Of a stretch of 64,000 bases of DNA, positions 12,124 to 37,608 are shown piece after piece. Under the pieces are notes generated by a model. That model worked only from the letters and a program-made list of their open reading frames with translations, was not told the origin of the DNA and did no database searches. Source of the stretch: an uncultured Bacilli bacterium. Lineage in GTDB: Bacteria; Bacillota_I; Bacilli_A; RF39; UBA660. The first letter of the stretch is position 1. Each line of letters begins with the position of its first letter. The stretch spans positions 887,692 through 951,691 of the forward strand of contig OZ007025.1 in assembly GCA_963931545.1 (NCBI GenBank). Direction: 5' to 3'. The translations under genes were made by a program, and so were the position numbers.

Positions 12124-13181
12124 TTGTTTTTCCTCATTTCTAACATATCATAAAAAGCTTCTAATCTAGTTTTAATTCCCGTTTCTGAAGTGGTGGTATC
12201 AAAACTAAAAAATAAAACTGGTTTTTGATATGTACTTGCAATTTTATTAATTATAGGCATAGCTCCTATTTCAGGCGTACAGAAAGATGATTTAATATGA
12301 ATTATTCCATCGTAATCATTTTCACATAAGTATTTACATCTTGCGATATTATCAGAAGCATCAGCTCCCATATTATATTTAAAATATTCTTTAGCATATT
12401 TTTTGTATTTTTTAGTTTTTTTTGCTTTTTCGAATAACAAATAATGAACATTGGTAAACCTTTTAATTTCAATATGATGTTTAGCTAACTGTTTTTCTAA
12501 AAAATAGTTAGAAAATGGCTCCATTATAGTATATAACTCTCCTATTATTCCAATTTTAATCCTATTATCTGGTTTATGAATTTTTATTTTATGGAATTTA
12601 TTTAAATATTTTTTATATGTTGGTTTTAATTCTTTATATCTTTTAATATGAGAAAATTCTATAAGCATTTCTTTTTTTAGACTTTCAAAAGTACCTTTTT
12701 TTATCTCAAAACCTATATTTTCTCTAATATAATTATCTATCTCATCCATATATTTAACCATTTTAAATGTAATAAAACTATAATATAAAGCTTTTATTTT
12801 AGAGTATTTTGGATTTATAATTTTCAACAACTTATTTATCCTTTTAAATCTAGTAACTCCTTCTGTAACTAAATTAATTATGGTACATTCATAACCTAAA
12901 TCTTTAATAATTTTTTCTTGCACCTCTGCATAATAACCATATCTACATCCTCCACCCATTTGAATTAAAATATCGGCTTTTTCTTCTAAACATTCTATCA
13001 TTGTTCCTAAAGTATATTTAAATGGTGTACATACAAATTCTGGAGAATACTTAGTACCTATTTCTACTGTTTTATTAGTTATTTTAGGAGCTTTGATTAC
13101 TTTTACATTTGGAAATATATGTGAAAGTAAGTAATTTGCAGGAACATAATAATCGCCCATTTGTGGAAATGCTATTTTCAT
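12120..13181 (-). CDS. 2-hydroxyacyl-CoA dehydratase component-D-like (HGD-D/DUF2229) protein
   Basis: Family-level resemblance to HGD-D proteins. Start and stop overlap the neighbouring genes, indicating a coupled operon with the activase. Confidence 0.45.
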   Translation of the reverse strand: MKIAFPQMGDYYVPANYLLSHIFPNVKVIKAPKITNKTVEIGTKYSPEFVCTPFKYTLGTMIECLEEKADILIQMGGGCRYGYYAEVQEKIIKDLGYECTIINLVTEGVTRFKRINKLLKIINPKYSKIKALYYSFITFKMVKYMDEIDNYIRENIGFEIKKGTFESLKKEMLIEFSHIKRYKELKPTYKKYLNKFHKIKIHKPDNRIKIGIIGELYTIMEPFSNYFLEKQLAKHHIEIKRFTNVHYLLFEKAKKTKKYKKYAKEYFKYNMGADASDNIARCKYLCENDYDGIIHIKSSFCTPEIGAMPIINKIASTYQKPVLFFSFDTTTSETGIKTRLEAFYDMLEMRKNK

Positions 13182-20471: not shown

Positions 20472-20582
20472 AATGTCCTCCGATATAATTATACATTGTA
20501 TATTGAAAAAAAAGAAGCATAAAATTACTTATATTATAATTAGGTATAGAAAAACTTAAAACAAGTTAAATTATTTTAAGTT

Positions 20583-23500
20583 TTATCCTCTATTAGTGTA
20601 TGAATAAGTTGTTCCTCTTAAAATCATTTCTAATGCATCTACTCCATATGGTTTACCATCGGTAGATAACATTTGAAATCCTAAATAGTAATTTCCTTTT
20701 AATGATGATATATTTAAATTGAAATTTCTACTTTCTCCATCGGCAATCGTACTACTACTAATTTGATTACTCTGTGCATGTACCCATGCATTTTGACCAG
20801 CACTTTGTGGTATAACAGCTAATATATTTGTTCCTGTTCCCCAAGGAGATGCATGATGCATTGGTATATATCTAACATATAATGTACTATAATCTGTTAA
20901 ATCAAATAAATTTTGTGATGTTAACTGACTTCTGACAGGACGAGTGTCTGTATGAGCCATAGTTAAATAATACTTATGTGAAGTAGCCCATACTGGATGT
21001 TTATCAATTTCTGCTTGTGAAGCATATACATTCCAAGTAGGTGCCCAAGCATTTGTATCATATCTACTTAACCAAGCCGTAGATGAATCTGTAACATCTA
21101 ATTTAAATACCGTATAATCACTTTTTCGCCAACTAGGATAAATAATTGCAGAACTATTGCAACCACCCATAGTTCCTATTTTTACTGTTGTACCACTACT
21201 TATGGTATGTGTACTATTACCACATACTACTGTTGCTCCTGCATATGAAAATCCACTAGATGGTGATGTTGTAAATGTAATGTTTTCTCCATTTATTGAT
21301 TTATTTTTTGATAATTTTATACTTCCGCCTCTTACTGTACCTACTGATATTGATGTTATTCCACTAACTGTATAACTACTACTCATTGTTCCATTTTCAT
21401 CAGTTACTTTGGCTTCTATATTTCCATTTTTATCAAAATTTACATCTACTATATTTGAGGTTACTTCTACTATTTCTCCATTATCTTTTTGATATGTACA
21501 TGTTCTTGTAGAGCCACATCCTGATGGATATACTACAGTAACTGTCTTTCCATCACTTTTTATAGTTTCTCTAAACGATATATTTCCTGGATTTTCATAG
21601 GAATATGTTTGACATAGTAATCTCGCATAATTTATATTACAAGAATTATCTTTTCCATTTGTCAATATTTCTTGGATTGCAAAATAATAGTCGCCACTTA
21701 ATTTTGTTATATCACTTGTTATACTTTTTCCATTTGTTGCATTTGTACCAGCCATACTAACCTCTACCGATGTTGATAAATTTTAAGCCAATCATTTTTA
21801 GTTTTTGTTGGTCCTATAAACATTACTCCACCATTGGTACACCAAGCCATTATTTGATATGACTTGTAATTATCTACATTTATTGTTCTTGAAGTTGATA
21901 TTTGATTTCTAGAAGCTCCTTGTGTATGTTGAATATTCGCGTAATATTTATTACCTCCTGAATCAGCACTTGTCGTATAATCCAAAAATGTTCCTTTTAA
22001 TCCATCATATTTAGTAAACTCCCATGGGATGCTTGCAGGAGTACTATTCAAATAGAAAAGATTATAATCATTACATTTCCATGATGGGTATACTATTGCT
22101 GAAGCACAATTTTTATCAGCTATTGAAAATGTTTTAGTACTTGCTCCTATTTTATATTTTGTTCCATTTTGACAAATTATTGTTGACCCTTGATATTTAA
22201 ATGTACTATCTGGAGTATCTGTAATACTTATTACTTCATCATCTATTGCTACTTCTTTTGATAGACTTATACTTCCTCCTTTTATATCTCCTGCTTGTAA
22301 TTTTGTTATTCCTGTTACATTATAAGAATTGTTTACACTATTTGTTCCATCTGTTACTGTTGCTATTACACTTCCATTCATTGTAAATGATACATTTGCT
22401 TTTGTACTATTTACTTCTACTACTGTTTCACTATCTTTTTGATAGGTACATGTTAATGTGCTTCCACATCCAGATGGATATGTTATAGTAACTGTTTTTC
22501 CTTCATTATTTGCACTTTCACTAAAGGTTGGTGCTACTAAACTAGTTGTTTTTACTTCTTTTGTTTCTGTTGTTGTTTTACCACTTTTTGATGTTACTCT
22601 AACTTCTACTGTATAACTTGTTCCTTGATTTAGATTTGTAAAATTATGAGTGGTACTAGTATTGCCATCTATCCAATTTCCACCATTTATTCTATATTCA
22701 TATTTAGTTATTCCACTATCAGCTTGGGCATTTGATACTACGGTTATACTATTGGTTGTACTTGTAGTTGATATGCTTAAACTTATATTATCTACTTTAA
22801 CTTTTGAAGTTAGTGTTGTATTACTACTAACTGTATATTTATTATTTGGATTTCCTACTTTAGAACTTCCACTATACCATCCATCTATTATATAGCCTTT
22901 ATTAGGGGTTATGGTTGGTAAGGTTATTTCACATTCTGTTTCTCTATTATATATTGTACATATATCACTATTTTTTCCTATACTTTCTATATTGCTTCCT
23001 TTGTTATAGGTTACTTTTATTTCTTTTTTATAGATAGCATACAAGGTACTTGTTCCGACCGGCATTTGATATTCTGTTAGTCCTACTAAGGCATCTTTAT
23101 CGGTATTTCAGCCTACAAATGTCCATCCATTTTTGTAGGCTTTAATATTTAAATCTACTTTACTTCCACTTGTTAGATATTCTCCTTCACTATCGGTTCT
23201 TTCTCCTCCATTTGTTTTATAATCATAGGTTAATAGATATGTACTTGGGGCTTCTGGGTCTTTATTTTCTTGAGTATATTCAAATTCTATTTCTACTTCA
23301 CTTGAAGTTGGCTCTCCATCATAGTTTGGATTATATTCTATTTTTACATGAACTAATTTACTTTTTCCATGTTCTAAGACTTCTCCTTTGGTATATCCTG
23401 AGAAGGTTATTATTACCGCTTCACTATTTGAGTTTTGGGTATTTGTTAATATATCATTTAGTTTAGCATCTAAGGTCCCTCTATTTTCTATGGTTACATC

Positions 23501-23760
23501 ATATTCCATGGCATCGCCTTTTTTATACAAATCGGCTTCCATTGAGGCTGTTAAGGTGGTCCATGATGGTTTTACTGTATTTTTGGCACTTCCTGTTGGA
23601 GTTCCATCTGTAACATTAGTTATTCTTATATCCCAGTTACTAGTTACTTTTGAAGTTCCTGATATCTTTAATTCGGTATTAAATGCGGCATAGCCTATAA
23701 CCATACATAATAGTACTCTTATTAAGCTTAATATTATTATATTTCTTTTTTTTCCCTCTA
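20583..23760 (-). pseudogene. Large surface protein gene (SipW/TasA-type signal, Fn3-like module, two tandem 250-aa modules), disrupted copy A
   Basis: By comparison with the 97%-identical copy B, this gene is split into three ORFs (23108-23704, 21764-23065, 20583-21755). The causes are a frameshift in an A8 tract at 23746-23753, a TGG-to-TGA change at 23108-23110 and a +1 frameshift near 21757. Confidence 0.55.
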
Positions 23761-23885
23761 TGCATATTATTCACCAATTATATTATACCCCCCCATGAAA
23801 ATTTCAAGTTTTTTAATACAAAAGTAAAAAAAGAAACAAGGTTTTACACTTATTTCTTTATTTGGGGGTGGTGGGGGTATTTATT
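22695..23885. repeat. 1.2 kb direct repeat (copy A) shared with 35633-36840, 12.9 kb apart
   Basis: The near-identical DNA covers the 5' part of the surface-protein gene plus 180 bp of upstream region. A second shorter shared block is 20761-20855 versus 35518-35610. Confidence 0.8.
23788..23868 (-). promoter_or_regulatory. Promoter region of surface-protein copy A with a homopolymeric tract (C7 on + strand, G7 on coding strand) abutting TATAAT, plus the G-rich motif GGGGGTGGTGGGGG
   Basis: On the coding strand the sequence reads TTGAAA-ttttcat-G7-TATAAT, about 25 nt before the ATG. A G-rich block lies at 23855-23868. Confidence 0.35.
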
Positions 23886-24009
23886 AATATTGAGGGAAAA
23901 GTATATATAATATAAATGTTTTTTATACATATTTTTGATATTACATTACCTATAAATAAAATCACATATATAACAAATTCATATTTTAGCATTTTAAATA
24001 TCTATTTAC

Positions 24010-25290
24010 TTATTCTTTAAATTCAAATTCATAATCCATTATTTTGATGGTATCTCCTTCTTTAGCCCCTAATTCTCTTAATTCATCATCAATTCCCATT
24101 TTTCTTAATTTATTTGAAAATCTTAGTATTGCTTCTTCTGTATCTAATCTACTCATAATTAATAATTTTTCTATTTCTTTACCACTTATTATCCAAGTAT
24201 CATTTTCTTTTGTTATTTTATATGGTTTTTCTTCTTTAAATTTATAAATGACATGACTTTCAAATTTTTCATCTTCGTATAAATTTTCTTTAGGGATTTC
24301 ATCCAACATATCGGCTAATTTTAGAAGAATCTTTTCAATTCCATTACCATTTATAGCAGACATTTCATATATTTCTTTATTTACTTTTTCTTTGAATTTC
24401 TTTAAGTTTTCTTTTGATAATGGCATATCCATTTTATTAGCAATTATTATTTGAGGTTTTTTTATTAAAGATTTATCAAAATTTTCTAATTCTTTATTAA
24501 TGGTTATGTAATCATTATATGGGTCATTTGTATATCCACTCATATCAATTATATGGGCAATAACCCTAGTTCTTTGAGTATGTTTTAAAAATTTATCACC
24601 TAATCCATGTCCTAAAGAAGCACCTTCGATTAATCCTGGTAGGTCTGCTACTACGAAACTTCTATTATCTGATGTTTTTACAACACCTAAATTTGGTTTT
24701 AAAGTAGTAAATGGATAATCAGCAATTTTAGGTTTAGAAGCTGATATTTTAGATATAAAGGTTGATTTTCCAACACTTGGCATACCAACTAATCCTACAT
24801 CAGCTATTAATTTTAATTCGATTTTAACTTTTCTTCTTTCTCCTGGTTCACCGTTTTCAGCATAATTGGGTGCGGGATTGGATTGAGTGGCAAAAGCGAT
24901 ATTTCCTCTACCACCTCGGCCACCTTTAGCAATTACATATTGTTCATTATTTTTTGTTAAATCAGCGATAATTAATCCTGTATCAAAATCTGTAACAACT
25001 GTTCCTGCGGGAACTGGAATTATTATATCTTCAGCATTTTTTCCATGCATTCCTTTTCCCATTCCGTTTTCGCCTTTATACCCTTTAATTATTTTTTTAT
25101 ATTTAAAATCTATCAAAGTGTTTAACCCTGTATCTACTTTAAATATAATATCTGAGCCTTTGCCACCATTACCACCAAATGGACCACCCATGGCTACATA
25201 TTTTTCTCTCCTAAAAGCTAAACAACCGTTACCACCACTACCAGCAATCAATTCAACTACGGCTTCATCTATAAACATAATATCACTCAT
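24010..25290 (-). CDS. obg: GTPase Obg/CgtA
   Basis: The Obg fold (MFIDEAVVELIAGSGGNGCLAFRREKY), G motifs (GMPSVGKST) and a C-terminal OCT domain identify it. The true start is probably the ATG at 25278. Confidence 0.9.
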   Translation of the reverse strand: MSDIMFIDEAVVELIAGSGGNGCLAFRREKYVAMGGPFGGNGGKGSDIIFKVDTGLNTLIDFKYKKIIKGYKGENGMGKGMHGKNAEDIIIPVPAGTVVTDFDTGLIIADLTKNNEQYVIAKGGRGGRGNIAFATQSNPAPNYAENGEPGERRKVKIELKLIADVGLVGMPSVGKSTFISKISASKPKIADYPFTTLKPNLGVVKTSDNRSFVVADLPGLIEGASLGHGLGDKFLKHTQRTRVIAHIIDMSGYTNDPYNDYITINKELENFDKSLIKKPQIIIANKMDMPLSKENLKKFKEKVNKEIYEMSAINGNGIEKILLKLADMLDEIPKENLYEDEKFESHVIYKFKEEKPYKITKENDTWIISGKEIEKLLIMSRLDTEEAILRFSNKLRKMGIDDELRELGAKEGDTIKIMDYEFEFKE

Positions 25291-25361
25291 TTCTTAAGAA
25301 TATTATACATCATTATTCTCAAAGTTCAAAGTGTGTTTTAGTTCATTATAAAAAGGATTAA

Positions 25362-25829
25362 TTAATAATCCCATTTAACTATTGCATTTTTAGCTCCCCA
25401 TGGACTTTTATTTATTTGATTAGGTGGTGTTTGAATATAAAATGTTATACCATCATTTTCATTAAATGAAGTAGAATCTATTTCTACGATGTTAGATTTT
25501 ATAGTAATATTTATTATTTTTTTATTGTTAAACGCATTAGGTCCTATGGCATCTATGGTTTGACCATTTAAACTTTCTGGAATAAAAACTGTTTTATCAC
25601 ATGTATCACTATAGTTAGTTATTGTTAAATTATTTCTACTATTTGTTTCTACGGTAAAACATGTTGGGTTTGTAGTTAGTGTTTGAACATCGTTTAAAAC
25701 ACTTTCTTTTATTTTATCATTAGCTAGTTTTCTATTTCCTAAAATGGATACCGTTTCTAAAACTAATATTAAAAATAAAGATAAAATTCCATATAATAAA
25801 GCTGATGTTATAAAACCTTTATTGTTCAT
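25362..25829 (-). CDS. Small exported protein with a prepilin-like N-terminus and BspA-type leucine-rich repeats
   Basis: The N-terminus MNNKGFITSALLYGILSLFLIL is a class III signal-like sequence that lacks Glu at +5. The C-terminal repeats (FIPESLNGQTIDAIGPNAFNN..ITI) are LRR_5-like. Confidence 0.3.
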   Translation of the reverse strand: MNNKGFITSALLYGILSLFLILVLETVSILGNRKLANDKIKESVLNDVQTLTTNPTCFTVETNSRNNLTITNYSDTCDKTVFIPESLNGQTIDAIGPNAFNNKKIINITIKSNIVEIDSTSFNENDGITFYIQTPPNQINKSPWGAKNAIVKWDY

Positions 25830-26085
25830 TTTGCCATCCCCAATTCTGTTTAAATTATACCTTATTTATATTTTTTATACAAGGTGTTGGGTTTATATTA
25901 TAATTGTTTAGTGATTTATTTAATAAATTATAATAGGTGGTATTATGCGAAATTTTTGGTGTGGTCGTGGCAAATGGTCAATTATTTGTTTAATTAGTAT
26001 GATTATTTTATTTTATCAGATTTTAATTACAATATTTATTGTATCTAGATTTAATGTGTTTTTAATATTTGTTTTTATGATTTTA

Positions 26086-26988
26086 TTATTCTGCTCTATT
26101 TTTAGACTCTTTTGGTAAAATAAGCATTTCTGTTTTGTAGATTTTATCTATCATTTTACTTATTTTTTTACAATTTATATATTCGGAATCATCAAAATTA
26201 ACAAGGTCGATTTGTGATATTAAAATAAATAATAATTCTTTTTCTTCTTTTAAAAGAGGATAAATATTTTCATATTCATTTAATATTGTTTTAAAATCAA
26301 ATTCTAATGCATGATTTTGATAAAGTTTATATAAATCAAAAATGGGACTACCAATTTTAGATTTATCCCAACTAACTAAATACGATGTATCAGATTCTAA
26401 AAAATGTTCTAATTTTAAATTGTTATGAAGAACAACCCTTCGTTCTTTTCTTTTTTCTTTAATGTTTTCGTGCCAATAATCTAATCTTTTTTTATTTTCA
26501 CTTATAGTATCATATATTTTTGTAATATTTCTAGCTAATAACAATTCACTTGGACTCATATATACTTTAGATTCAATTATAGTTATTAAATCGGTATAGT
26601 ATATATATAAATAATTTAAGTTATTATCTAAATCTTCATATATTTTTTCATAATAATCTAAGTCAATTTCTTTATAATGAGTGGTTTTGCTATGTAATAA
26701 AGCTACTAATTTTATTAAATCTAAAATTTTTTGTTCTTTTGGAATATTTAAATCTTCAATATAATTAGTAAGTTGATATGATTCATCTTGATTATTTAAA
26801 AAAAAAGGTAAATAATCAAAACTGCGAGATTTTAAGTAATTTAAAATTTGCGGGTTTATCTTACCTTCTTTATATATATATTTTCCTTTATTTGTATTTA
26901 TTACAATTGTTTTACCTTTCTTTTTATATTCTCTAGCAATAATACCTTTACTTTTTAAAATTTGATTAATTTTCATAATTTGGAACAA
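26086..26988 (-). CDS. CotS/YsxE-family spore-coat kinase-like protein
   Basis: The phosphotransferase-fold motif VLHNNLKLEHFL is a degenerate form of HGDLxxxN. The gene sits directly downstream of a LysM SpoVID-like gene, matching the B. subtilis spoVID-ysxE arrangement. Confidence 0.45.
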   Translation of the reverse strand: MFQIMKINQILKSKGIIAREYKKKGKTIVINTNKGKYIYKEGKINPQILNYLKSRSFDYLPFFLNNQDESYQLTNYIEDLNIPKEQKILDLIKLVALLHSKTTHYKEIDLDYYEKIYEDLDNNLNYLYIYYTDLITIIESKVYMSPSELLLARNITKIYDTISENKKRLDYWHENIKEKRKERRVVLHNNLKLEHFLESDTSYLVSWDKSKIGSPIFDLYKLYQNHALEFDFKTILNEYENIYPLLKEEKELLFILISQIDLVNFDDSEYINCKKISKMIDKIYKTEMLILPKESKNRAE

Positions 26989-27571
26989 TTAATTTATCGC
27001 CTATTTTAAGATCATTTAAATCATTATAAGCTTCTAATTCTTCTTTATTTATTTCATATTTTTGAAGAATTGAATCAATAGTATCATTTTCTGTAACAAC
27101 ATGTACTTTATAGACTGAATACCTTTCATTTTCATCAAAACTATCAAAGAGATTTTTTGTATCTATATTTTGATTATTTTCTATATCTGCTTCTTCACGT
27201 TCATCTAATATTTCTATTTTTTCTTCTGGCAAAACGACTATCTCTTTTTCTTCTAAGTTGTCTAAAGAAACTTCTATATTAATTGAAAGTATTTCATTAT
27301 TAATGACTTCATAATAAAAATCATTGATATCCACTATTACATTATTTGTATTATATTTTTTATCAATACTAATATCAAATGGCAATTTATATTCGAATGA
27401 ATCAACATTCAAACTAGCTTCAGTCATTTTATAAGTTCCACTAATAATAAATTCACCTGAAACCAAATTATCTTCTTTTAGCGCTAGAGTATGCTCTAAT
27501 GATATACTATTAATTTCAAAGATATTGTTATTAAAATCAATATCTTTTTTAAATGGCACTATTTTTTTCAT
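26966..27571 (-). CDS. SpoVID/SipL-like protein (SPOCS-like N-terminal domain plus C-terminal LysM)
   Basis: A C-terminal LysM domain (DTIDSILQKYEINKEELEAYNDLNDLKIGDKLIVP) follows an N-terminal region resembling the SpoVID N-domain. The gene is coupled to the CotS-like gene. Confidence 0.4.
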   Translation of the reverse strand: MKKIVPFKKDIDFNNNIFEINSISLEHTLALKEDNLVSGEFIISGTYKMTEASLNVDSFEYKLPFDISIDKKYNTNNVIVDINDFYYEVINNEILSINIEVSLDNLEEKEIVVLPEEKIEILDEREEADIENNQNIDTKNLFDSFDENERYSVYKVHVVTENDTIDSILQKYEINKEELEAYNDLNDLKIGDKLIVPNYEN

Positions 27572-27612
27572 GTTTATCTCCTCCTATATAAATATATGAC
27601 TTATTAATTTTT

Positions 27613-28206
27613 TTAGAATAAATTTTCATAAATTGAACTTGCATTATCAAAATTTGCTTTATTCCATATATTTTCAATGTAATTATTTCGTTCATTTTTA
27701 TATTTTAAATAATATGAATGTTCCCAAAGGTCGATGTTAAATAGTGGTATAAGATTATATGAAAGTGGTGTTTCTTGATTTGGTAAATTGATTATTGTTA
27801 GGTTACCATTGTTATCGGCGACTAAAAAAGTATAACCTGAACCAACTAAATTTTTAGATTTATTTATAAAAGTTTGTTTAAAATTTGTAAAATTTCCATA
27901 ATCATGGTTTATTTTATTTAAAAGTTTACCTTTTGGTAAGGATGGTGTATCGCTTAAACTTTGCCAATATAAATCATGATTTAATATTCCACCTGCATTA
28001 TATAATATTTGTCCTCTATTTTGTATTTGAAATTCATTTATTCTTTTGGGAATTTGATTTAAAGGTATTTTGTAATCTTTAATATAATTGTTTAAATTTT
28101 CAGCATATTTTTGATGATGTTTATTATAGTGAATATTTACTGTTTGTTCATCGATTACTGGTTCTAAAGCATCATAATCATATGGTAATTTTATTGTTTG
28201 ATACAT
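27613..28206 (-). CDS. sodA: Superoxide dismutase (Fe/Mn)
   Basis: The metal-ligand context LPYDYDALEP and the motifs HHQKY and DLWEHSYY identify it. Confidence 0.9.
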   Translation of the reverse strand: MYQTIKLPYDYDALEPVIDEQTVNIHYNKHHQKYAENLNNYIKDYKIPLNQIPKRINEFQIQNRGQILYNAGGILNHDLYWQSLSDTPSLPKGKLLNKINHDYGNFTNFKQTFINKSKNLVGSGYTFLVADNNGNLTIINLPNQETPLSYNLIPLFNIDLWEHSYYLKYKNERNNYIENIWNKANFDNASSIYENLF

Positions 28207-28260
28207 TATTTCGCCTCCATTTAATTATATGAAAAAAAGAAGAACATATTAATCTTCTTT

Positions 28261-30786
28261 TTAGTTATTACCAAAATCATCTAGAAAATCATCAATTGTT
28301 AAGATTTGTTTATCTATTTTTTCTAAAGAAATTTCTTTCTTAGGTTTATCAATTTCTGTATTTTCTGCACCATTTTCTAAATCTTTAGAGGTCAGTAAAT
28401 CTGCACTTACAAATACTTTTTTTACCTTATCTTTAGTGATAGTTGAACCCGTTTGATATCTATCACAAATTGGAAATTCTGATGATTTATGGTAGGTTAT
28501 TTTATCAGTTAAAATACCTATTTCTTTTTTATGATTAAGAATTAAAGCTGAGACTAATTTATATGGATTTGTTTTAACATCTCTTATTGCAAGTAATCCT
28601 TTACGGGCTCTTGTCATAACATCAAATTCGTTTATTTTAACTCTTTTTCCCGTTCCTTTGTCGGTAACAAATAAAACATATTCGGCGGTTGCATTAAATG
28701 AGTTTCCACTAATAACATAATCATCTTTTAAGTTAATTGCTTTAACTCCACTACCTCTTAGACCAGTTAATGGAATTTCATCGGTTTTATATCTTAAAGC
28801 TAATCCATTATGAGTGGTTACTAATACTTCTTCTTTTTCTTTAACGACTGATACAACTTTATCTTTTGGTTTTAATTTCATTAAGTTGACAGGTTTAGTA
28901 TATCTTTGAACTTTTAAATCTTTAATGTTTGTTCTTTTAACCATACCATTTTTAGTAAATGAAATGAAATTTACATTTTCTTTAAAGTCTTTAGTTAAGA
29001 ATGAAGCAATAATATCTTCATCACTACTTATTTTAATGATATTACTGATGTGTTTACCTAAATCTTTCCATTTTAAATCAGGTAATTCATAAACAGGAAC
29101 GTAAAGGAAGTTTCCAAGTGATGTAAATAGTAGTAAAGTGTCCATGGTATTAGCTTCATAGATAGCTGTTTTAAAGTCTTTATCTTTTAAACCTGTTTCA
29201 TCACTATTAGAAGCTGAATAACTTCTTAAGGATACTCTTTTTACATAACCTTCATTAGTTAAAACAACTATGCATTCTTCTTTTGGAATTAATGAGGATG
29301 TGTCTATTTTAATTTCAGTTACTTCGTCTTTTATCTCTGTTTTTCTAGGTGTAGCATATTCTTTTTTAATCATTTTTAGTTCTGTTTTCATAACATGTTT
29401 TAAAGCTTCTTCGTTTTCTAAAATCTGAGTCCAGATAGCTATTTCTTTTTTCTTTTCTTCTAATTCATTTTCTAATTCCGTGACATCGGTATTGGTTAAT
29501 TTATATAATTGTAAATTTACAATGGCTTCAGCTTGGGGTTTTGTAAAATCAAATTCGGTTTGCAAGTTTTCGATAGCATTGGCTTTATTTTTAGAAGCTC
29601 TAATAACTTTAATTACTTCGTCTAATATAGATAAAGCTTTGATTAAGCCTTCTAAAATGTGCATTCTAGCTTTGGCTACTTTTAAATCAAATTCGGTTCT
29701 TCTGGTAATTACTTCTTTTTGATGAGCAATATAGGCATCTAATATTTCTAAAATGCCTAATACCATTGGTCTTCTATTTACAATAGCTACCATATTATAG
29801 TTATAAGAAATCATCATATCGGTATTTTTAAGTAAGTAATTTATGATTAATTCTTCGTTAGCATCTTTTTTTAAATCAATAGCTATTTGAAGCCCATTTC
29901 TATCGGTTTCATCTCTAATTTCAGATATTCCTTCTATCTTTTTTTCAATTCTAATTTCGTCTATTTTTTTTACTAATGAGGCTTTATTTACTTCATAAGG
30001 TATTTCGGTTATAATTATTTGTCTTTTAGATTTAGGACCTGTTATTTCATATTTACATCTAACATTTATTTTCCCTTTACCAGTAGTAAAAGCATCTTTG
30101 ATTCCTTTTAAACCTTCGGCAACTCCACCTGTCGGAAAGTCTGGTCCTTTGACAATGTCTAAGATACTATCTAACCTACAGTTTGGACTATCAATGCGTT
30201 TAATAGTTGCATCGATTATTTCTCCTAGATTATGTGGTGGTATGTTTGTAGCATATCCAGCTGATATACCTGTCGCACCATTTACTAATAAATTGGGAAA
30301 TCTAGCTGGTAAAACGGTTGGCTCTAATAAAGTATCATCATAGTTTAAACTCATTAAAACTGTATCTTTATTGATATCTTTTAAAAGTTCGCCTGCTACT
30401 TTTGTTAGTCTTGCTTCGGTGTAACGCATGGCTGCGGCACCATCGCCATCCATAGAGCCATTATTACCCTGCATTTCAACATAACATAGGTTGTTTTTCC
30501 ACCACTGACTCATTCTAACTAGAGCATCATAGATACTAGAGTCGCCATGTGGGTGGTAGTAACCCATGATGTTTCCAACAGCTTTAGCTGATTTTTTTGT
30601 TGGTTTATCATAGGTATTACCATCTTTATACATTCCATATAGTATTCTTCTTTGAACTGGTTTTAAGCCATCTCTAACATCTGGTAAAGCTCTATCTTGA
30701 ATAATTGCTTTGGCATATCTACTAAAGCTATCGCCCATGATGTATTCTAGTGAGTAATCATATATTCTCTTTACTGCTTCTTCCAA
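28261..30786 (-). CDS. parC: DNA topoisomerase IV subunit A
   Basis: The sequence IIQDRALPDVRDGLKPVQRRILY is ParC-type (VQRR rather than the GyrA VHRR). The gene is 841 aa and lies downstream of a ParE-like gene. Confidence 0.8.
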   Translation of the reverse strand: MEEAVKRIYDYSLEYIMGDSFSRYAKAIIQDRALPDVRDGLKPVQRRILYGMYKDGNTYDKPTKKSAKAVGNIMGYYHPHGDSSIYDALVRMSQWWKNNLCYVEMQGNNGSMDGDGAAAMRYTEARLTKVAGELLKDINKDTVLMSLNYDDTLLEPTVLPARFPNLLVNGATGISAGYATNIPPHNLGEIIDATIKRIDSPNCRLDSILDIVKGPDFPTGGVAEGLKGIKDAFTTGKGKINVRCKYEITGPKSKRQIIITEIPYEVNKASLVKKIDEIRIEKKIEGISEIRDETDRNGLQIAIDLKKDANEELIINYLLKNTDMMISYNYNMVAIVNRRPMVLGILEILDAYIAHQKEVITRRTEFDLKVAKARMHILEGLIKALSILDEVIKVIRASKNKANAIENLQTEFDFTKPQAEAIVNLQLYKLTNTDVTELENELEEKKKEIAIWTQILENEEALKHVMKTELKMIKKEYATPRKTEIKDEVTEIKIDTSSLIPKEECIVVLTNEGYVKRVSLRSYSASNSDETGLKDKDFKTAIYEANTMDTLLLFTSLGNFLYVPVYELPDLKWKDLGKHISNIIKISSDEDIIASFLTKDFKENVNFISFTKNGMVKRTNIKDLKVQRYTKPVNLMKLKPKDKVVSVVKEKEEVLVTTHNGLALRYKTDEIPLTGLRGSGVKAINLKDDYVISGNSFNATAEYVLFVTDKGTGKRVKINEFDVMTRARKGLLAIRDVKTNPYKLVSALILNHKKEIGILTDKITYHKSSEFPICDRYQTGSTITKDKVKKVFVSADLLTSKDLENGAENTEIDKPKKEISLEKIDKQILTIDDFLDDFGNN

Positions 30787-30796
30787 TTTTGTTCAC

Positions 30797-32704
30797 CTAC
30801 TTTGCATAATTATCTTCTAAGGTAAATTCGATATTTTCTTCTATCCATTTTTTTCTTGGCTCAACGTTATCGCCCATTAAAACACTAACCCTTCTTTCAG
30901 CTAGGGCTGCGTCGGTTAGATTTACTTTGATGAGACTTCTTTTTTTAGGGTCCATGGTTGTTTCCCATAGTTGTTCGGCGTTCATTTCTCCTAATCCTTT
31001 ATATCTTTGTTTTTCTAATTTTATTTTGTTATTTTTTCTAATTTCTTCGGCCCCTTCATCATCCCAGGCATAGCCATATATTTTGTTGCCATTTTTTAAA
31101 GCATATAAAGGAGGCATAGCTATGTATAGGTGTCCATTTTCAATTAATGGTTTCATAAATCGATAGAAAAACGTTAATAGTAATATGGCAATATGAGCTC
31201 CATCATCATCGGCATCGGTCATGATTATTACTTTATCATAGTTACAGTCTTCTATTTTAAAGTCACTACCTATTCCTGCACCAATTGTTTGAATCATGGT
31301 ATTTATTTCATTGTTAGCTAAAACATCGGTTAGTGAGGCTTTTTCGGTATTTATTACTTTACCTCTTAAAGGTAAAATAGCTTGGAATTTTCTATCTCTA
31401 CCTTGTTTAGCTGAGCCACCAGCTGAATCTCCTTCGACTAAGAATAATTCATTTATTTTGGAATTTTTGGTTTGGGCTGGGGTAAATTTATCACTGATTG
31501 ATTTTTCTTTTCTATTTTTTCCTTTACCATTTCTAGCTTCGTCTCTAGCTTTTCTAGCTGCTTCTCTAACTTGCTTTGATTTAACCATTTTTTCTAGTAT
31601 TTTAGTAGCTATTTCTTTATTTTCTTCTAGGAAGAATTGTAAATGTTCTGTCGTAATACTATCGGTTACTGTTCTAGCTATTGGAGAGCCTAATTTTCCT
31701 TTGGTTTGACCTTCGAACTGTAATAATTTTTCTGGTATTTGCAGACTTATGATAGCGGTTAGTCCTTCTCTTGTATCTGGTCCTTCGAAATTTTTATCTT
31801 TTTGTTTTAAATAACCATTATTTCTTGCATAATCATTAAACACTCTAGTTAAAGCAGTTTTGAAACCAACTTCATGTGTACCACCATCTGATGTTTTAAC
31901 GTTGTTGACAAATGAGATTATATTTTCCGAATAACTTTCAGTATATTGAAAAGCTATTTCGACATTGATACCATCTTTTTCTCCTTTGAAATCAAATGGT
32001 TTATGAAGTACTTTTTTATCTGTATTTAAATATTCGGCAAAAGCGTTTAAACCTTTTTCATAATGATAAGATTCTTTTCTATCCGTATTTTCATCATATA
32101 TTTCAATAGTTAAATTTTTAAGTAAGAAAGCACTTTCTTGCATTCTTTCGCATATGGTAGAAAAAGAAAAAGTGGTATTTTGAAATATTTCATCATCTGG
32201 CATGAATCTAACTTTGACACCAGTTTTATTTGTCTTACCTATTTTTGTTAATTTTTTATCTAAATGTCCTCCATTTTTAAAACTAATAAAGTATTCAGCT
32301 CCATCTCTTTTGATATTGACTTCCATCCATTTACTTAAAGCATTAACAACAGAAGCTCCAACACCATGAAGTCCACCAGATACTTTATAGCCTGATGTTT
32401 CAAATTTACCTCCAGCGTGCAGAACGGTATAGATAACTTCTGGGGTTGATTTACCACTTTCATGCATTCCTACTGGTATTCCTCTACCAGAATCTTCTAC
32501 ACTAATACTTCCATCTTTATGCATGGTTATATTTATTTTATTACCATAACCGTTTATAGCTTCATCAATACTATTATCGACAATTTCCCATACTAGGTGG
32601 TGAAGCCCTCTTTTATCTGTTGAGCCAATATACATTCCTGGTCTTTTTCTAACAGCTTCTAATCCTTCTAATATTTTTATTGAGTGTTCATCATATTTTG
32701 CCAT
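30797..32704 (-). CDS. parE: DNA topoisomerase IV subunit B
   Basis: The sequence LEGLEAVRKRPGMYIGSTDKRGLHHLVWEIVDNSIDEA is present. The 635-aa length and parE-parC gene order fit. Confidence 0.8.
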   Translation of the reverse strand: MAKYDEHSIKILEGLEAVRKRPGMYIGSTDKRGLHHLVWEIVDNSIDEAINGYGNKINITMHKDGSISVEDSGRGIPVGMHESGKSTPEVIYTVLHAGGKFETSGYKVSGGLHGVGASVVNALSKWMEVNIKRDGAEYFISFKNGGHLDKKLTKIGKTNKTGVKVRFMPDDEIFQNTTFSFSTICERMQESAFLLKNLTIEIYDENTDRKESYHYEKGLNAFAEYLNTDKKVLHKPFDFKGEKDGINVEIAFQYTESYSENIISFVNNVKTSDGGTHEVGFKTALTRVFNDYARNNGYLKQKDKNFEGPDTREGLTAIISLQIPEKLLQFEGQTKGKLGSPIARTVTDSITTEHLQFFLEENKEIATKILEKMVKSKQVREAARKARDEARNGKGKNRKEKSISDKFTPAQTKNSKINELFLVEGDSAGGSAKQGRDRKFQAILPLRGKVINTEKASLTDVLANNEINTMIQTIGAGIGSDFKIEDCNYDKVIIMTDADDDGAHIAILLLTFFYRFMKPLIENGHLYIAMPPLYALKNGNKIYGYAWDDEGAEEIRKNNKIKLEKQRYKGLGEMNAEQLWETTMDPKKRSLIKVNLTDAALAERRVSVLMGDNVEPRKKWIEENIEFTLEDNYAK

Positions 32705-33151
32705 GTTATCACCTTATAGAATTATAACAGAAAAATCCTTAAAAAACAAATGAAAATGTCAAGTTATGTGAAGTAATTTTTTATAAAAAGAAACTTATGT
32801 TCTTGTTTTTTTGACTAAGATTTAACTTCTTGAAAAAAATTAGTTTTTTGTTATTGTATATGTAGATAAGATTTTCTCATATAATAAAAAGGAATGTTCA
32901 ATAGTGCTTAGTTGAATGTGCTAATATGGTTGACACTTAAATCAAACAATTGCTTAGATTAGGTGCTTTTTTCTATTTTAAATAATATAATAAGTAGAAG
33001 GGATATTATGGCGTAAAGAGCTTTTTCTCTTTTGGTCATAAGCATCACCTCCAATTCTTATCAATGAATTGGCACACTCAACTTATCAAACGTTCCTTAT
33101 ATATAAGTATAACAAACGCGACACTTATTAAAATAATTTTATAACTTTTTG

Positions 33152-33997
33152 TTATTCTTTTAAAAGTTCTTCTAATGATTTAATATTATATCCCTTAGAG
33201 GTTATATAATTTAATATGACTTCTATTTGGCTATTTAATTCACTGTTTGCATCTAAAGATATTATTGAACCTGGTAATATTTGTTTTTTTATGTTTAAAT
33301 ATGGTTTATTTTTAATTATTATTTGAGGCATGATAGTTATTGAATTTTGAATAGAACATATTTTCAATATTTTTTTATTTGGTTTTTCGGTATAACAGTA
33401 GTTATATATTTGTGGACCTATATTAGTTATAATTGTTTTCATCCAGATAAAATCACTATCTTCATAATCTTCATTATTACTTAAATTACCTATGGTATGA
33501 CCATTTTGAACTAATTTTATGATTTGATTATGATGTTTTTCCAAATATTTACTTTCAATAAAGAAAGTTGCTTTGACTTTTTTTACTTCTAATAGTTTAA
33601 TAATGTTTGTTATGTCATTATTATTACCTACTTTAAAAAGTAAGGTTACATCCATTTTAGTATTGTTACCATTAATTACATATTTATCTTTATTTTTATC
33701 TAAAGTGTTTTCTACTTTTAAAGGCTTATAAACCAATAATTTATCATTAAAATAACCAATCTTACTCATAGCTTCATAACTTTTATTTACATCTACTTCT
33801 TTACCATTTATTCCTGGGATTATAGTATCTTCATTAATTATTGGTTCAATGGCATTTTCTTTATAACCGTCTTTTTTACTTTTAATTTCGGTAAGTAATG
33901 TATCAGTTAGTTTAGCTGTTGTTCCTACTTTTTCAGTATATATAAAGCTACCCACCATAAGGGTTAGTATACCAACCATTTGAAAGAATTTTTTCAT
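33152..33997 (-). CDS. Polysaccharide deacetylase (NodB-homology) with N-terminal membrane anchor
   Basis: A NodB-like block (VTLLFKVGNNN...ATFFIES...NGHTIGNLS) and an N-terminal TM helix are present. Confidence 0.55.
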   Translation of the reverse strand: MKKFFQMVGILTLMVGSFIYTEKVGTTAKLTDTLLTEIKSKKDGYKENAIEPIINEDTIIPGINGKEVDVNKSYEAMSKIGYFNDKLLVYKPLKVENTLDKNKDKYVINGNNTKMDVTLLFKVGNNNDITNIIKLLEVKKVKATFFIESKYLEKHHNQIIKLVQNGHTIGNLSNNEDYEDSDFIWMKTIITNIGPQIYNYCYTEKPNKKILKICSIQNSITIMPQIIIKNKPYLNIKKQILPGSIISLDANSELNSQIEVILNYITSKGYNIKSLEELLKE

Positions 33998-34099
33998 ATG
34001 CTCACCTATGAAATTATATGATTGTATTTTAGCTATATTCTTTGAATATTTTCACAGTTAAGCGATTTTATCATATTATACTGTGAAGGGGGTAATTAT

Positions 34100-34324
34100 A
34101 TGAATGGACAGTTTTATGACTATAGGCAACCTATGCGCCCTAACGGTCCACGTCCAGGAAGGCCTGGTAGACCACCTGGTGGGCCTAACCAAGGCGGATT
34201 TTTAGGCCCATTTATTTTAGGGGGAATTACTGGAGGACTTATTTCTCCATTATTCTGGGGTAATAACCGACCTATATATTATCCTTATTATCCACCATAC
34301 GGTCCTTATCCATATTGGCGCTAA
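34100..34324 (+). CDS. Small Pro/Gly/Tyr-rich protein with central hydrophobic segment
   Basis: A GC-rich 225-bp ORF in an AT-rich genome. It has an RBS-like GAAGGGGG and an extremely biased composition (PGRPGRPPGGPNQGG...YYPYYPPYGPYPYW). Confidence 0.35.
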   Translation: MNGQFYDYRQPMRPNGPRPGRPGRPPGGPNQGGFLGPFILGGITGGLISPLFWGNNRPIYYPYYPPYGPYPYWR

Positions 34325-34335
34325 AGAAAAAGTCT

Positions 34336-35316
34336 CTAATTTGAGGCTTTTTCAATATATTCTTTAGTTACTATATTTAAATCTTTAATTAAAGAAAATA
34401 TTTCTTCTTCATTTTGTAATCTCGTACCACTTGCGAACATATGCCCTCCACCGCCATGATTAGCTACAACTTCATTTATAATTGGTCCTCTTGATCTTAC
34501 TGATATCCTAAAAGAGCCTAATTCTTTATCTTCGGTGGCTGTTACCCAAACTAACATTTCATTTATATGATTAAAACTATTTATCATATTTCCAGGTGTA
34601 GCTGCATCGACATTATATTCTTTTAATGTTTCATCATGAATTATTAAATAGCCAACTTTATTTTCAGTTATTTGATAATTTAATGACATGTAACCTTGAA
34701 ATTTTATTTCTTTATATGGCCTTATATATAATTCATTATATATTTTTGTGATGTCTATATTAGTTTCTTTTAATAATCTACTTACAATATCAAAAGTTTT
34801 AGCATTAGTATAAGAAAACATAAATCTATTTGTATCAGCAATTAATCCTAAATATAGTTTTTCTCCAGCTTCTTTGGTTATTTTTAAATGGGTTTTAAAG
34901 GCTAATTCTAAAACCATTTGTGAAGCGCTTGTTGATTTATCATCTATCCACTCTAAAGAACACATTGTTTCAACATATGGATGATGGTCTATTTTAATAG
35001 AATTTTTTATTCTTCTTGGGTCGATACCATCTACCCTTCTATGGTCTGGTGTATCTGTTACAATTAATAAAGTATTTTCAATATCTTCTGGCAATTTATC
35101 TAATTCACCAATATATTTAAATTTAGCTGCTGGAGAACCTATAACATACACTTTTTTATTTGGAAAATTATCATTTATTATTTGTTTTAAACCTAAAGTA
35201 CTTCCTAATGCATCTGGGTCTGGTCCCACATGTCTAGCTATAATTATAGTTTCAGCTTTTTTTATTTTCTTATATATTTGTTTATGAATATTTGATTTAA
35301 ATAACATTTTAATCAC
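34336..35316 (-). CDS. nrnA: DHH/DHHA1 phosphoesterase NrnA (nanoRNase / pAp phosphatase)
   Basis: DHH motifs (IIIARHVGPDPDALGS, DHH) and the DHHA1 motif GGGGH are present. Confidence 0.75.
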   Translation of the reverse strand: MIKMLFKSNIHKQIYKKIKKAETIIIARHVGPDPDALGSTLGLKQIINDNFPNKKVYVIGSPAAKFKYIGELDKLPEDIENTLLIVTDTPDHRRVDGIDPRRIKNSIKIDHHPYVETMCSLEWIDDKSTSASQMVLELAFKTHLKITKEAGEKLYLGLIADTNRFMFSYTNAKTFDIVSRLLKETNIDITKIYNELYIRPYKEIKFQGYMSLNYQITENKVGYLIIHDETLKEYNVDAATPGNMINSFNHINEMLVWVTATEDKELGSFRISVRSRGPIINEVVANHGGGGHMFASGTRLQNEEEIFSLIKDLNIVTKEYIEKASN

Positions 35317-35399
35317 TCTTTCTTTTATGATTATAACACATTTGATTTTTATACAAAAGAGATGTCAAGAAAATTAATTACTATTTCTTGACATCCTTT

Positions 35400-36720
35400 T
35401 AAAATTAAATACCTCTATTATAATATGAATAGGTCGTGCCACCTCTAAGCGCTATTTGTGTAAAGTCGACTCCATATGGTCTTCCACTTGTTGCTAACAT
35501 CTGAACTTGTAGTAGCACTAACTTGATTGCTCTGTCCCTGTACCCATGCATTTTGACCAGCACTTTGTGGTATAACGGCTAATATATTTGTTCCTGTTCC
35601 GCCAGATATACTTGTGTGTTTCATTATCTATACTATATTCATATTTAGTTATTCCACTATCAGCTTGGGCATTTGATACTACGGTTATACTATTGGTTGT
35701 ACTTGTAGTTGATATGCTTAAACTTATATTATCTACTTTAACTTTTGAAGTTAGTGTTGTATTACTACTAACTGTATATTTATCATCTGGATTTCCTACT
35801 TTAGAACTTCCACTATACCATCCATCTATTATATAGCCTTTATTAGGGGTTATGGTTGGTAAGGTTATTTCACATTCTGTTTCTCTATTATAAATAGTAC
35901 ATGTTTCATTATTTTTTCCTATACTTTCTATATTACTTCCTTTGTTATAGGTTACTTTTATTTCTTTTTTATAGATAGCATATAAGGTACTTGTTCCGAC
36001 TGGCATTTGATATTCTGTTAGTCCTACTAAGGCATCTTTATCGGTATTCCAGCCTACAAATGTCCAGCCATTTTTGTAGGCTTTAATATTTAAATCTACT
36101 TTACTTCCACTTGTTAGATATTCTCCTTCACTATCGGTTCTTTCTCCTCCATTTGTTTTATAATCATAGGTTAATAGATATGTACTTGGGGCTTCTGGGT
36201 CTTTATTTTCTTGAGTATATTCAAATTCTATTTCTACTTCACTTGAAGTTGGCTCTCCTTCATAGTTTGGATTATATTCTATTTTTACATGAACTAATTT
36301 ACTTTTTCCATGTTCTAAGACTTCTCCTTTGGTATATCCTGAGAAGGTTATTATTACCGCTTCACTATTTGAGTTTTGGGTATTTGTTAATATATCATTT
36401 AGTTTAGCATCTAAGGTCCCTCTATTTTCTATGGTTACATCACATTCCATGGCATCGCCTTTTTCATACAAATCGGCTTCCATTGAGGCTGTTAAGGTGG
36501 TCCATGATGGTTTTACTGTATTTTTGGCACTTCCTGTTGGAGTTCCATCTGTGACATTAGTTATTCTTATATCCCAGTTACTAGTTACTTTTGAAGTTCC
36601 TGAGATTTTTAATTCGGTATTAAATGTGGCATAGCCTACCACCATACATAGTAGTATTCCTACTAAACTTAATATTATTATATTTCTTTTCTTTTTCCCT
36701 CTATGCATATTATTCACCAA
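35400..36720 (-). pseudogene. Truncated/internally deleted paralog (copy B) of the surface-protein gene
   Basis: The 5' 1.1 kb is 97% identical to copy A. After the equivalent of A position 22695 the sequence jumps to a block matching A 20855-20761 and then to a diverged 3' end. This deletes about 1.8 kb and leaves a short out-of-frame tail. Confidence 0.5.
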
Positions 36721-36840
36721 TTATATTATACTCCCCCCCCCCCACCATGAAAATTTCAAGTTTTTTTAATACAAAAGTAAAAAAAGAAACAAGGTTTTAC
36801 ACTTATTTCTTTATTTGGGGGTGGCGGGGGTATTTATTTT
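35633..36840. repeat. 1.2 kb direct repeat (copy B) of 22695-23885
   Basis: See the copy A repeat entry. Confidence 0.8.
36733..36830 (-). promoter_or_regulatory. Promoter region of copy B with homopolymeric tract C11 (G11 on coding strand) next to TATAAT, plus the G-rich motif GGGGGTGGCGGGGG
   Basis: On the coding strand the sequence reads TTGAAA-ttttcatggt-G11-ag-TATAAT. A G-rich block lies at 36817-36830. The tract length differs from copy A (11 versus 7). Confidence 0.35.
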
Positions 36841-36872
36841 ATATGAAAAAAAGATATTCTAAATGAAATCCT

Positions 36873-37154
36873 TTATTTTCTATGATACATTGTACGAATT
36901 AATATTTTTCTATTATTATTTAAATTATCTAATCTTAACTTTGTGCATTGTAATGAGGTAATACCTGCTGTTTCAATAATCATACCAGCACAAAAGAATG
37001 CTGAATCAGCATTTAATACTCCATGAGTTATAGCAATAGCACCAGCGAAAATGGTAAATTTTTCTGCTAATTGTTTTATATTTTCGTTAGCTATTTCATC
37101 TTCCTCTCTTAAAATGTCATTAACTATTAATTCGTTTTTTTTATTAAATTTCAT
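36873..37154 (-). CDS. Small hypothetical protein, translationally coupled to trmK
   Basis: The ORF has its own AAAGGAGGA RBS and an ATG overlapping the trmK stop (ATGAAATTTAA). The 93-aa product has a hydrophobic C-terminal half. Confidence 0.3.
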   Translation of the reverse strand: MKFNKKNELIVNDILREEDEIANENIKQLAEKFTIFAGAIAITHGVLNADSAFFCAGMIIETAGITSLQCTKLRLDNLNNNRKILIRTMYHRK

Positions 37155-37608
37155 ATTGTCCTCCTTTATTTTTAGCATATATAATATTATATGTTTTTCC
37201 ATCTTCTATAAAAACTTCTTTATAAATGTAATAATTTTTTGTTTTTAAAAATTCTTTTAATAAATCAATGTTAGTATGGCTTGATAGTATTAAATCATTA
37301 GTTATATCCATGTTTAATATTTTTATTATACTATGAGTACCCATACCGCTTATAACAATTATTTCATCTTTTAATTGTATGTTTTCCAATCCATTATTAG
37401 TTATAGCTTGAATATTTGCTTTATATTTTTCGGCATTTGTTTTGGCTGTTTTTGTACAGAATGGAGATTTGTCTATGGCTAAGCAGTGACAATTTTTATA
37501 TTTATTTAAATAGATGTCTAAAAAGGCGTGGTCTGAGCCAACGTCTATTATATTACTATTTTCATTTATTAAATCACAAATAGCTTGCAACCTTTTAGAT
37601 AACTTCAT
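37144..37608 (-). CDS. trmK: tRNA (adenine22-N1)-methyltransferase TrmK, short form lacking the C-terminal coiled-coil
   Basis: The sequence LSKRLQAICDLINENSNIIDVGSDHAFLDIYL matches the TrmK/YqfN N-terminus. The position directly downstream of rpoD matches B. subtilis. Confidence 0.7.
   Translation of the reverse strand: MKLSKRLQAICDLINENSNIIDVGSDHAFLDIYLNKYKNCHCLAIDKSPFCTKTAKTNAEKYKANIQAITNNGLENIQLKDEIIVISGMGTHSIIKILNMDITNDLILSSHTNIDLLKEFLKTKNYYIYKEVFIEDGKTYNIIYAKNKGGQYEI

Follow-up and report, generated by a model that had tools for sequence, protein, structure and literature searches.

Homopolymer tracts in promoters mediate phase variation of the vlp genes of Mycoplasma hyorhinis (poly-A) and of genes in Neisseria and Bordetella (poly-C/G), and silent-cassette antigenic variation, exemplified by pilE/pilS of Neisseria, vlsE of Borrelia and msp2 of Anaplasma, involves promoterless donors and one expression site. 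Dispersed repeats, such as rrn operons, insertion sequence (IS) elements and tuf genes, mediate chromosomal rearrangement. In Helicobacter pylori, adhesin paralogs of the bab and sab groups occupy several loci, have conserved end regions and form conversion chimeras that move the 5' region between loci; simple repeats in the 5' coding region (bab) or in the promoter and coding region (sabA) switch the genes on and off, and loci are occupied or empty depending on the strain (PMC4552749; PMC2715451). Here we analyze a 64,000-nt stretch of contig OZ007025.1 (hereafter, the window) from the genome of an uncultured gut Bacilli bacterium, in which two copies of a surface-protein gene, denoted A and B, bracket a block of housekeeping genes that includes obg, parC and parE. 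We consider it likely that A and B are members of one dispersed gene family whose 5' modules undergo conversion, that copy B is the decayed remnant of a paralog that is intact in related genomes (the gene denoted P0006), and that the repeated modules serve as a substrate for rearrangement.

The sequence-only reading of the window had described direct repeats of more than 1.2 kb around essential genes, and the repeat search of the window bears this out: in a blastn alignment, positions 35626-36838 (copy B) match positions 22685-23885 (copy A) on the same strand with 96.5% identity over 1213 nt, the offset between the copies being 12,941-12,953 nt (~12.94 kb). The genes named in that reading as lying between the copies, obg, sodA, parC, parE and nrnA, likewise have profile matches (see Table 1 for the scores, including that of the nrnA-like protein). 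The comparison set consists of public related contigs (numbered L001 and onwards), and everything said below on exchange and rearrangement pertains to the evolutionary timescale.

The conserved 5' module and exchange among paralogs

A and B both belong to a dispersed multigene family that encodes secreted or surface proteins. A protein search yielded 372 matches in which the first ~330 residues are common and the rest diverges, with C-terminal ends consisting of FN3 and 317-aa modules, ricin lectin, LRR/DUF285 or other domains. All paralogs of the species possess a sharply bounded 5' module of ~1.2 kb that starts with AATAA(A)yACCCC(A/G)CCACCCCC, including a C5RCCAC5 tract. Its promoter part comprises, in this order, the C-tract, an A/T-rich hairpin with a T-run, TTGAAA, TTTTCAT, a poly-G tract and TATAATATAAT, with a TATAAT box between the poly-G and the start codon; the coding part begins with ATGCAT (MHRGKKKR..., a signal-anchor) and encompasses an N-terminal domain and two InlB B-repeats. 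The latter match the Pfam family PF09479 (Flg_new) with 36.3 bits in B and 29.2 bits in A (cut-off 27) and fall just under the cut-off of the NCBIfam model TIGR02543 (List_Bact_rpt). The 'GYA(T/A)FN' motif presumably resembles signal peptides of the SipW/TasA type. Gene callers start copy A at an internal ATG (MVIGYAAFN...), which loses the signal-anchor and masks the lesions in this copy that are described below.

Among paralogs, the 5' module undergoes concerted evolution. Related genomes are of two types that differ in gene order at this locus, type I, to which the window belongs, and type II, which carries the intact family genes P0002 and P0006. Paralogs within a genome are closer to each other (97.5% identity between the 5' modules of A and B, 98.2% between those of P0002 and P0006) than positional orthologues are between genomes, the identity between genome types being 93.7-94.4% whichever loci are compared. 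At 51 quartet-informative sites, the copies are grouped by genome; the corresponding counts for a grouping by locus are 0 and 2. The ychF-rpsF locus has a third paralog, which carries genome-specific amino-acid signatures over its first ~220 residues, as the other two paralogs do, in each genome type. On a finer scale, 37 differences separate the window from L001 over 14.6 kb. Copy A (3.3 kb) accounts for 26 of them, with clusters at 23042-23126 and 21396-21549; at those of the differing sites that lie in the 5' module, one allele matches another paralog, except at 23108 (a nonsense substitution) and 23060. The 96.5% identity of A and B is thus maintained by gene conversion among paralogs, as the sequence-only reading had supposed for these two copies, and the comparison with related genomes that it proposed revealed both mosaic patches and an alternative arrangement of the locus. 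Homologous recombination of the RecA type would be the mechanism, and the same 5' module homology provides the substrate for larger rearrangements.

The module might instead be a portable expression and recombination cassette with a dedicated mobility of its own, as opposed to a target of ordinary homologous recombination; we consider this unlikely. Every 5' module opens with C5RCCAC5 and a hairpin of 30-37 nt. In the window's genome, the mutL...mraZ site holds a ricin-type family gene of 926 aa that has direct 37-nt repeats of this hairpin on both sides (L061, 6450-6479 and 9347-9376), and five sister strains (L062-66) have one hairpin and no gene at the same site (L062, 9348-9377). The C-tract is complementary to the downstream G-tract, with a predicted single-strand pairing energy of -36.6 kcal/mol (z -3.1). 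If such mobility were real, it would amount to a new system of gene-cassette insertion and excision that shuffles surface-protein genes, and sometimes housekeeping blocks, in a minimal gut-Bacilli genome. Considered separately as a general repeated element, the hairpin was dismissed: a search of the window yielded two copies only, at A and B.

The poly-G tract, located between TTGAAA and TATAAT, varies in length. It is G7 in copy A (four assemblies), GGTG11AG in copy B of the window and GGTG12AG in copy B of L008, an independent assembly that is identical to the window over 12,144 nt but for this one extra G; in other strains and paralogs, the tract is 12-17 nt long. When all loci and strains are taken together, it measures 7-17 nt, and A or T often interrupts it. 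Upstream of family genes in other species, tracts of G7-G13 occur as well, positioned between a -35-like and a -10 box in L041, L045, L046 and L056. The TTGAAA-TATAAT spacers are 14 nt in copy A and 23 nt in copy B, with 14-24 nt observed overall and few at the 17-18 nt optimum; a promoter scan did not tell ON from OFF spacer states. These genes possess a homopolymer of variable length in the promoter, as do simple-repeat phase-variable genes. Judging by its sequence elements, the module has the architecture of a putative slipped-strand phase switch, in which slippage of the poly-G would turn expression on and off.

Decay of the two copies in the window

Copy B is a decaying remnant of a P0006-type family member that is native to the position upstream of nrnA and whose orthologue is intact at 740 aa. 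In a blastn alignment, window positions 35506-32849, which take in the end of the copy B tail and the flank up to nrnA, match positions 12059-14728 of L017 with 95% identity, and altogether the tail and flank follow P0006 nearly base for base (~95% over 2.7 kb including the flank). The P0006-type terminator hairpin is kept beside nrnA in both genome types. In agreement with the sequence-only reading, which credited copy B with the promoter and a 5' part of ~1.1 kb, the copy retains its promoter with the sequence upstream of it, and 1,087 nt of the coding part (ATG 36708 to 35622); of the variable C-terminal part, ~215 nt are left, out of frame. Relative to P0006, two deletions are apparent, one of 848 nt, which joins nt ~1024 of the P0006-type gene to nt ~1873 and shifts the frame, and one of 71 nt, between 35507 and 35506, which is specific to the window (L005 and L007 retain those 71 nt). 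At the junction of the larger deletion (...GAATATAGTATAGATAATG|AAACACACAAG...), FN3 sequence of the P0006/P0002 type is joined to P0006 nt ~1873, and the two sides have only AATG in common. The illegitimate deletion of 848 nt at the AATG microhomology removed FN3 and most of the single module and shifted the frame, and the 71-nt deletion came after it.

The contigs L005-L007, with flanks 99.2-99.9% identical to those of the window, carry a different deletion, which begins at ~nt 590 in the 5' module and ends within the module, at 'ATVYPSWKR'. The alleles of the window and of L005-L007 cannot be derived from each other, so a full-length gene existed recently and is decaying independently across strains. 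Thus, copy B has a reading frame that is disrupted relative to its orthologue, with independent lesions in close relatives, as is characteristic of a pseudogene. In L005 (~12395-12500), the 5' module of copy B also contains a 51-nt tandem duplication (AATAGAATATAATCCAAACTATGAAGGAGAGCCAACTTCAAATGAAGTAGA twice).

That copy B is still functional, encoding a truncated secreted protein of 396 aa that would consist of the signal, the N-terminal domain and two B-repeats and might be a decoy or a shorter adhesin under a poly-G switch, appears improbable to us. The open reading frame does extend for 396 aa from the MHRG start (compared to 740 aa in the intact L017 orthologue, P0006), the promoter elements are intact, and the 5' module is 96-100% identical to those of intact paralogs. 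However, conversion from the intact paralogs explains the high identity, the last 35 residues are out-of-frame junk, and in close strains the product ends at 207-224 aa as a result of the other deletion, with the 51-nt duplication in one of them, so that no copy B product is conserved.

The sequence-only reading had taken copy B for a duplicate of copy A that lost ~1.8 kb by recombination between internal 250-aa modules of A and that would act as a silent donor cassette, in the manner of an antigenic variation reservoir, or as an anchor for amplification. We find this even less plausible than a functional copy B, although the two copies are indeed 1.2-kb direct repeats with evidence of exchange among paralogs, and the tail of B does match the end of module 2 of A (35498-35600 against 20738-20840, 88%; 35412-35505 against 20587-20677, 70%, by blastn). 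The jump placed at 35633 is real, with the true junction ~10 nt away (Table 1), but beyond it the P0006-type gene is the closer match, ~95% including the flank compared to 70-88% for A, and the junction bases (AGTATAGATAATG) are also of the P0006/P0002 type rather than the A type, so copy B does not derive from copy A. A deletion of ~1.8 kb is obtained only if B is measured against A; against the P0006-type parent, 848 and 71 nt were lost. Furthermore, the period of the internal modules is 950 nt or ~317 aa, not 250 aa. The left breakpoint is at the start of FN3 (B 35622, equivalent to A ~22685), 94 nt upstream of module 1 and outside the modules, and the right one is near the end of the last module; the break, therefore, did not occur between equivalent positions of two modules, and the only homology at the junction is the 4 nt of AATG. 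The different deletion in the sister strains also argues against this model. As to a role as a cassette, copy B is no promoterless donor devoid of a start codon: just like copy A and the intact paralogs, it has the full set of C-tract, hairpin, -35 box, poly-G, -10 box, ribosome-binding site and ATG. Moreover, it carries no alternative variable region, having kept only the conserved part of the gene, which is all it could donate, and it is eroding; taken together, these features indicate that copy B is not an antigenic-variation cassette.

Copy A, which consists of the 5' module, FN3 and two tandem modules (67% identical in nucleotide and ~35% in amino acid sequence), is a separate family member that is inactive in the window's strain. 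It contains a 2-nt deletion after the start codon (A8 at 23746-23753 instead of A5GA4), which is common to L001, a TGG-to-TGA nonsense substitution at 23108-23110 and a 1-nt deletion (C) at 21785 relative to L001; the latter two lesions are specific to the window, so that L001, a strain with 99.75% identity, has only the first of the three. From the MHRG start, copy A is open for 28 aa only, compared to 1055 aa in P0002. Genetic code 11 is in use in this organism, with TGA as a stop codon, and the TGA inside copy A is, accordingly, a nonsense codon. Code 4 (that of Mollicutes), suggested by the GC content of 26.6% in the window, was ruled out: TGA ends ordinary genes, and the extensions under code 4 are short spurious tails.

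Alternative arrangement of the locus and the housekeeping block

In type I genomes (the window, L003 and L005-L007), the gene order is dnaG-sigA-trmK-93aa-[copy B]-nrnA...obg-[copy A]-dacB-znuA. Type II, which is represented by three long-read assemblies or contigs, involves two loci. The first (L004/L012) reads sigA-trmK-93aa-[one intact gene]-dacB, the gene being P0002 (1034/1055 aa; 1055 from the MHRG start); the second, ~110 kb away (L017-L020), reads mutL-aat-p378-[P0006, 740 aa, intact]-nrnA...obg-rbr-fdx-[P0051, 1079 aa, LRR]-mraZ. A crossover that joined the 5' modules of the two copies would yield precisely the trmK-[gene]-dacB order, and the excised unit, that is, the 3' part of B together with the housekeeping block, is found in type II inserted between two family genes. 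Hence both hallmarks of repeat-mediated rearrangement, the predicted recombinant junction and the relocated intervening DNA, are present. In type II, such recombination has probably left a single intact gene in a hybrid position between trmK and dacB, and the nrnA-obg block, with the 3' part of the B-type gene, lies ~110 kb away, inserted into the 5' module of another family gene.

The mutL...mraZ site in the window's own genome, reached by a MraZ search, has the order mutL-p378-mTERF-[926-aa ricin-type family gene]-mraZ and lacks the block, and in an outgroup species the site reads p378-[family gene]-mraZ, again without the block; the arrangement in the window is therefore probably ancestral. 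A clean reciprocal product at this site was considered and rejected: the block is absent in the window's genome, but the gene is ricin-type or missing, and mTERF differs. Among the search hits, no type I orthologue of P0051 closer than 73% was detected. More generally, family genes are found at synteny breakpoints (L004/L012, L017-L020, L021, L025, L026, L061): trmK is followed, across the family gene, by nrnA in type I, by dacB in type II and by a two-component system in the outgroup (OZ007038.1). The p378-mraZ site, in turn, is occupied by a ricin-type gene, is empty, or contains the entire housekeeping block together with a gene of the LRR type.

Several observations weigh against the joint reading of conversion, decay and rearrangement as we present it. 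The genome types differ at mutL...mraZ by a partial mTERF deletion, by the C-terminal end of the family gene (ricin, none or LRR) and by the loss of rbr-fdx, so that several events are needed rather than a single clean one. The direction of the translocation is derived from one complete outgroup genome and contig fragments, and in that outgroup a two-component system follows the trmK-locus gene, so that the ancestral order is tentative. With respect to the putative switch, the spacers of A and B (14 and 23 nt) match no simple ON state, and the promoter scan can place an alternative -35 box in copy B, 17 nt upstream. The G11/G12 difference and the lesions of copy A might include homopolymer assembly errors, but neither the TGA change nor the missing C of copy A lies in a homopolymer. 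Finally, the trmK-[gene]-dacB contigs could be collapsed assemblies, a possibility that three independent long-read assemblies argue against. The more radical proposition that the second copy or the block itself is a product of the metagenome assembly, in which a repeat gave rise to a mis-join or to a consensus chimeric between strains, is barely credible: the repeat does break assemblies, given that many short-read contigs of related metagenome-assembled genomes (MAGs) end inside the 5' module, but a HiFi contig contains the trmK-B-nrnA join, as do three short-read assemblies made independently from other samples (L005-L007), the obg-A-dacB join is found in L001, L013 and L015, and copy B has a unique junction sequence beyond what a mis-join could create.

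The features of the two copies and of the block between them are listed in Table 1. The spacer between obg and copy A matches, by eye, the first ~35 nt of the rubredoxin-domain gene, and one 39-nt blastn match of 87% identity (E 2.5e-4) corresponds to the 3' rubredoxin motif of that gene; this similarity, which is weak, suggests that the spacer may be a scar of the deletion of the rbr-fdx gene pair. The gene for the 155-aa protein lies between obg and the spore-coat-like genes; the N-terminus of the protein is hydrophobic and prepilin-like (MNNKGFITSALLYGILSLF...), and the protein weakly matches BspA-type LRR_5. On the other side of copy B (window 36873-37608, minus strand), TrmK is short, with 154 aa that match only positions 1-140 of the 205-position Pfam model, and its gene overlaps an open reading frame of 93-109 aa, which is in a different frame and matches no family. 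All related contigs keep this arrangement.

The window (GC content 26.6%) is 100% identical to the ENA contig s1497.ctg001804l of ERZ21549425. Its relatives are gut MAGs of 1.3-1.5 Mb assigned to 'uncultured Bacilli bacterium', some related MAGs bearing the label 'Tenericutes', and the window's own genome is ~1.3 Mb. Sporulation and cell-wall genes are present in the window (SpoVID-N/LysM, DacB). The SpoVID-N/LysM and CotS-like (APH-fold) genes at 26086-27571 (minus strand), together with dacB and the polysaccharide deacetylase gene, indicate a sporulating lineage despite the genome of ~1.3 Mb with 26.6% GC.

Table 1. Positions in the window of the features of copies A and B and of the housekeeping block
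Feature	Position	Strand	Remarks
Copy B, whole	35361..36838	-	pseudogene of a P0006-type member; begins with the 5' module and extends through its own terminator
5' module ('H') of copy B	35622..36838	-	ends with the first FN3 codons
Promoter of copy B	C-tract 36817-36831; hairpin 36783-36812; TTGAAA 36754-36759; interrupted poly-G 36731-36746; TATAAT 36725-36730; ATG 36706-36708	-	
Deletion junction 1 of copy B	35621..35625	-	between 35622 and 35621; AATG microhomology 35622-35625
Remnant of P0006-type C-terminal domain	35405..35621	-	original stop codon 35405-35407; alignment with L017, L005 and L007
Terminator hairpin of P0006-type gene	35361..35395	-	-17.9 kcal/mol, z -6.5
Housekeeping block between the copies	24010..35316	-	profile searches and comparison with related contigs
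nrnA-like, DHH/DHHA1 protein	34336-35307	-	scores below the NrnA cut-off
Polysaccharide deacetylase	33152-33997	-	
parE	30797-32704	-	NCBIfam parE_Gpos, 991 bits, above cut-off
parC	28261-30786	-	NCBIfam parC_Gpos, 996 bits, above cut-off
sod, Fe/Mn superoxide dismutase	27613-28206	-	
SpoVID-N/LysM protein	26966-27571	-	
CotS-like protein	26086-26988	-	
155-aa protein	25362-25829	-	
obg	24010-25278	-	NCBIfam, 587 bits, above cut-off
obg-copy A spacer	23886..24009	-	124 nt; resembles the 5' end of the rubredoxin-domain gene after obg in type II
5' module ('H') of copy A	22685..23885	-	
Promoter of copy A	C-tract 23864-23878; hairpin 23830-23859; TTGAAA 23802-23807; G7 23788-23794; TATAAT 23782-23787; ATG 23763-23765	-	
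Variable part of copy A	20550..22684	-	FN3; module 1 (~21579-22528); module 2 (~20586-21578); terminator 20550-20584

Relation to described systems and implications

The case adds a new member, from an uncultured lineage of Bacilli, to kinds of system that are already known. Its closest analogue is the babA/babB/babC and sab group of H. pylori, which likewise combines multiple loci, conserved ends, chimeras, loci that are occupied or empty, and tracts in the 5' region or promoter. In contrast to the H. pylori adhesins, the proteins of the present family are not outer-membrane proteins but secreted proteins of the Gram-positive type with InlB B-repeats; the 5' end alone is conserved, the tract is a poly-G in the promoter spacer, and the repeats bracket, and have relocated, 12.9 kb of essential genes. 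Switching, which is documented for H. pylori, is putative here.

Each of the other described systems resembles the family in some respects. As in promoter-homopolymer switches, a long homopolymer is located between the -35 and -10 boxes, its length varies among paralogs and strains, and it is kept in other species; in contrast to those switches, few of the spacers (14-24 nt) have the optimal length of 17-18 nt, A or T often breaks the tract, and a role in switching is again putative. With silent-cassette systems, the locus has in common a truncated copy with long homology to a fuller copy and evidence of segmental conversion; it differs in that the truncated copy has a promoter and a start codon, lacks the variable region and is decaying, and there is no single expression site. 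As in rearrangements mediated by rrn operons, IS elements or tuf genes, homologous repeats of ~1 kb are found at synteny breakpoints, with a deletion/translocation product in a sister lineage, but here the repeats are 5' modules of contingency-type surface-protein genes.

These findings correct the reading of the locus, in that both copies are dead genes and the short one is the remnant of a different paralog. They also document, in uncultured gut Bacilli with small genomes, a promoter and N-terminal module that evolves in concert, a variable poly-G tract and family genes at synteny breakpoints, one of which moved parC, parE and obg by ~110 kb. For the annotation of MAGs, it is useful to know that genes of this family break assemblies and that gene callers choose an internal start codon in them. 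No new mechanism is revealed; the family offers a naturally occurring case in which repeats of contingency genes have changed the order of essential genes.

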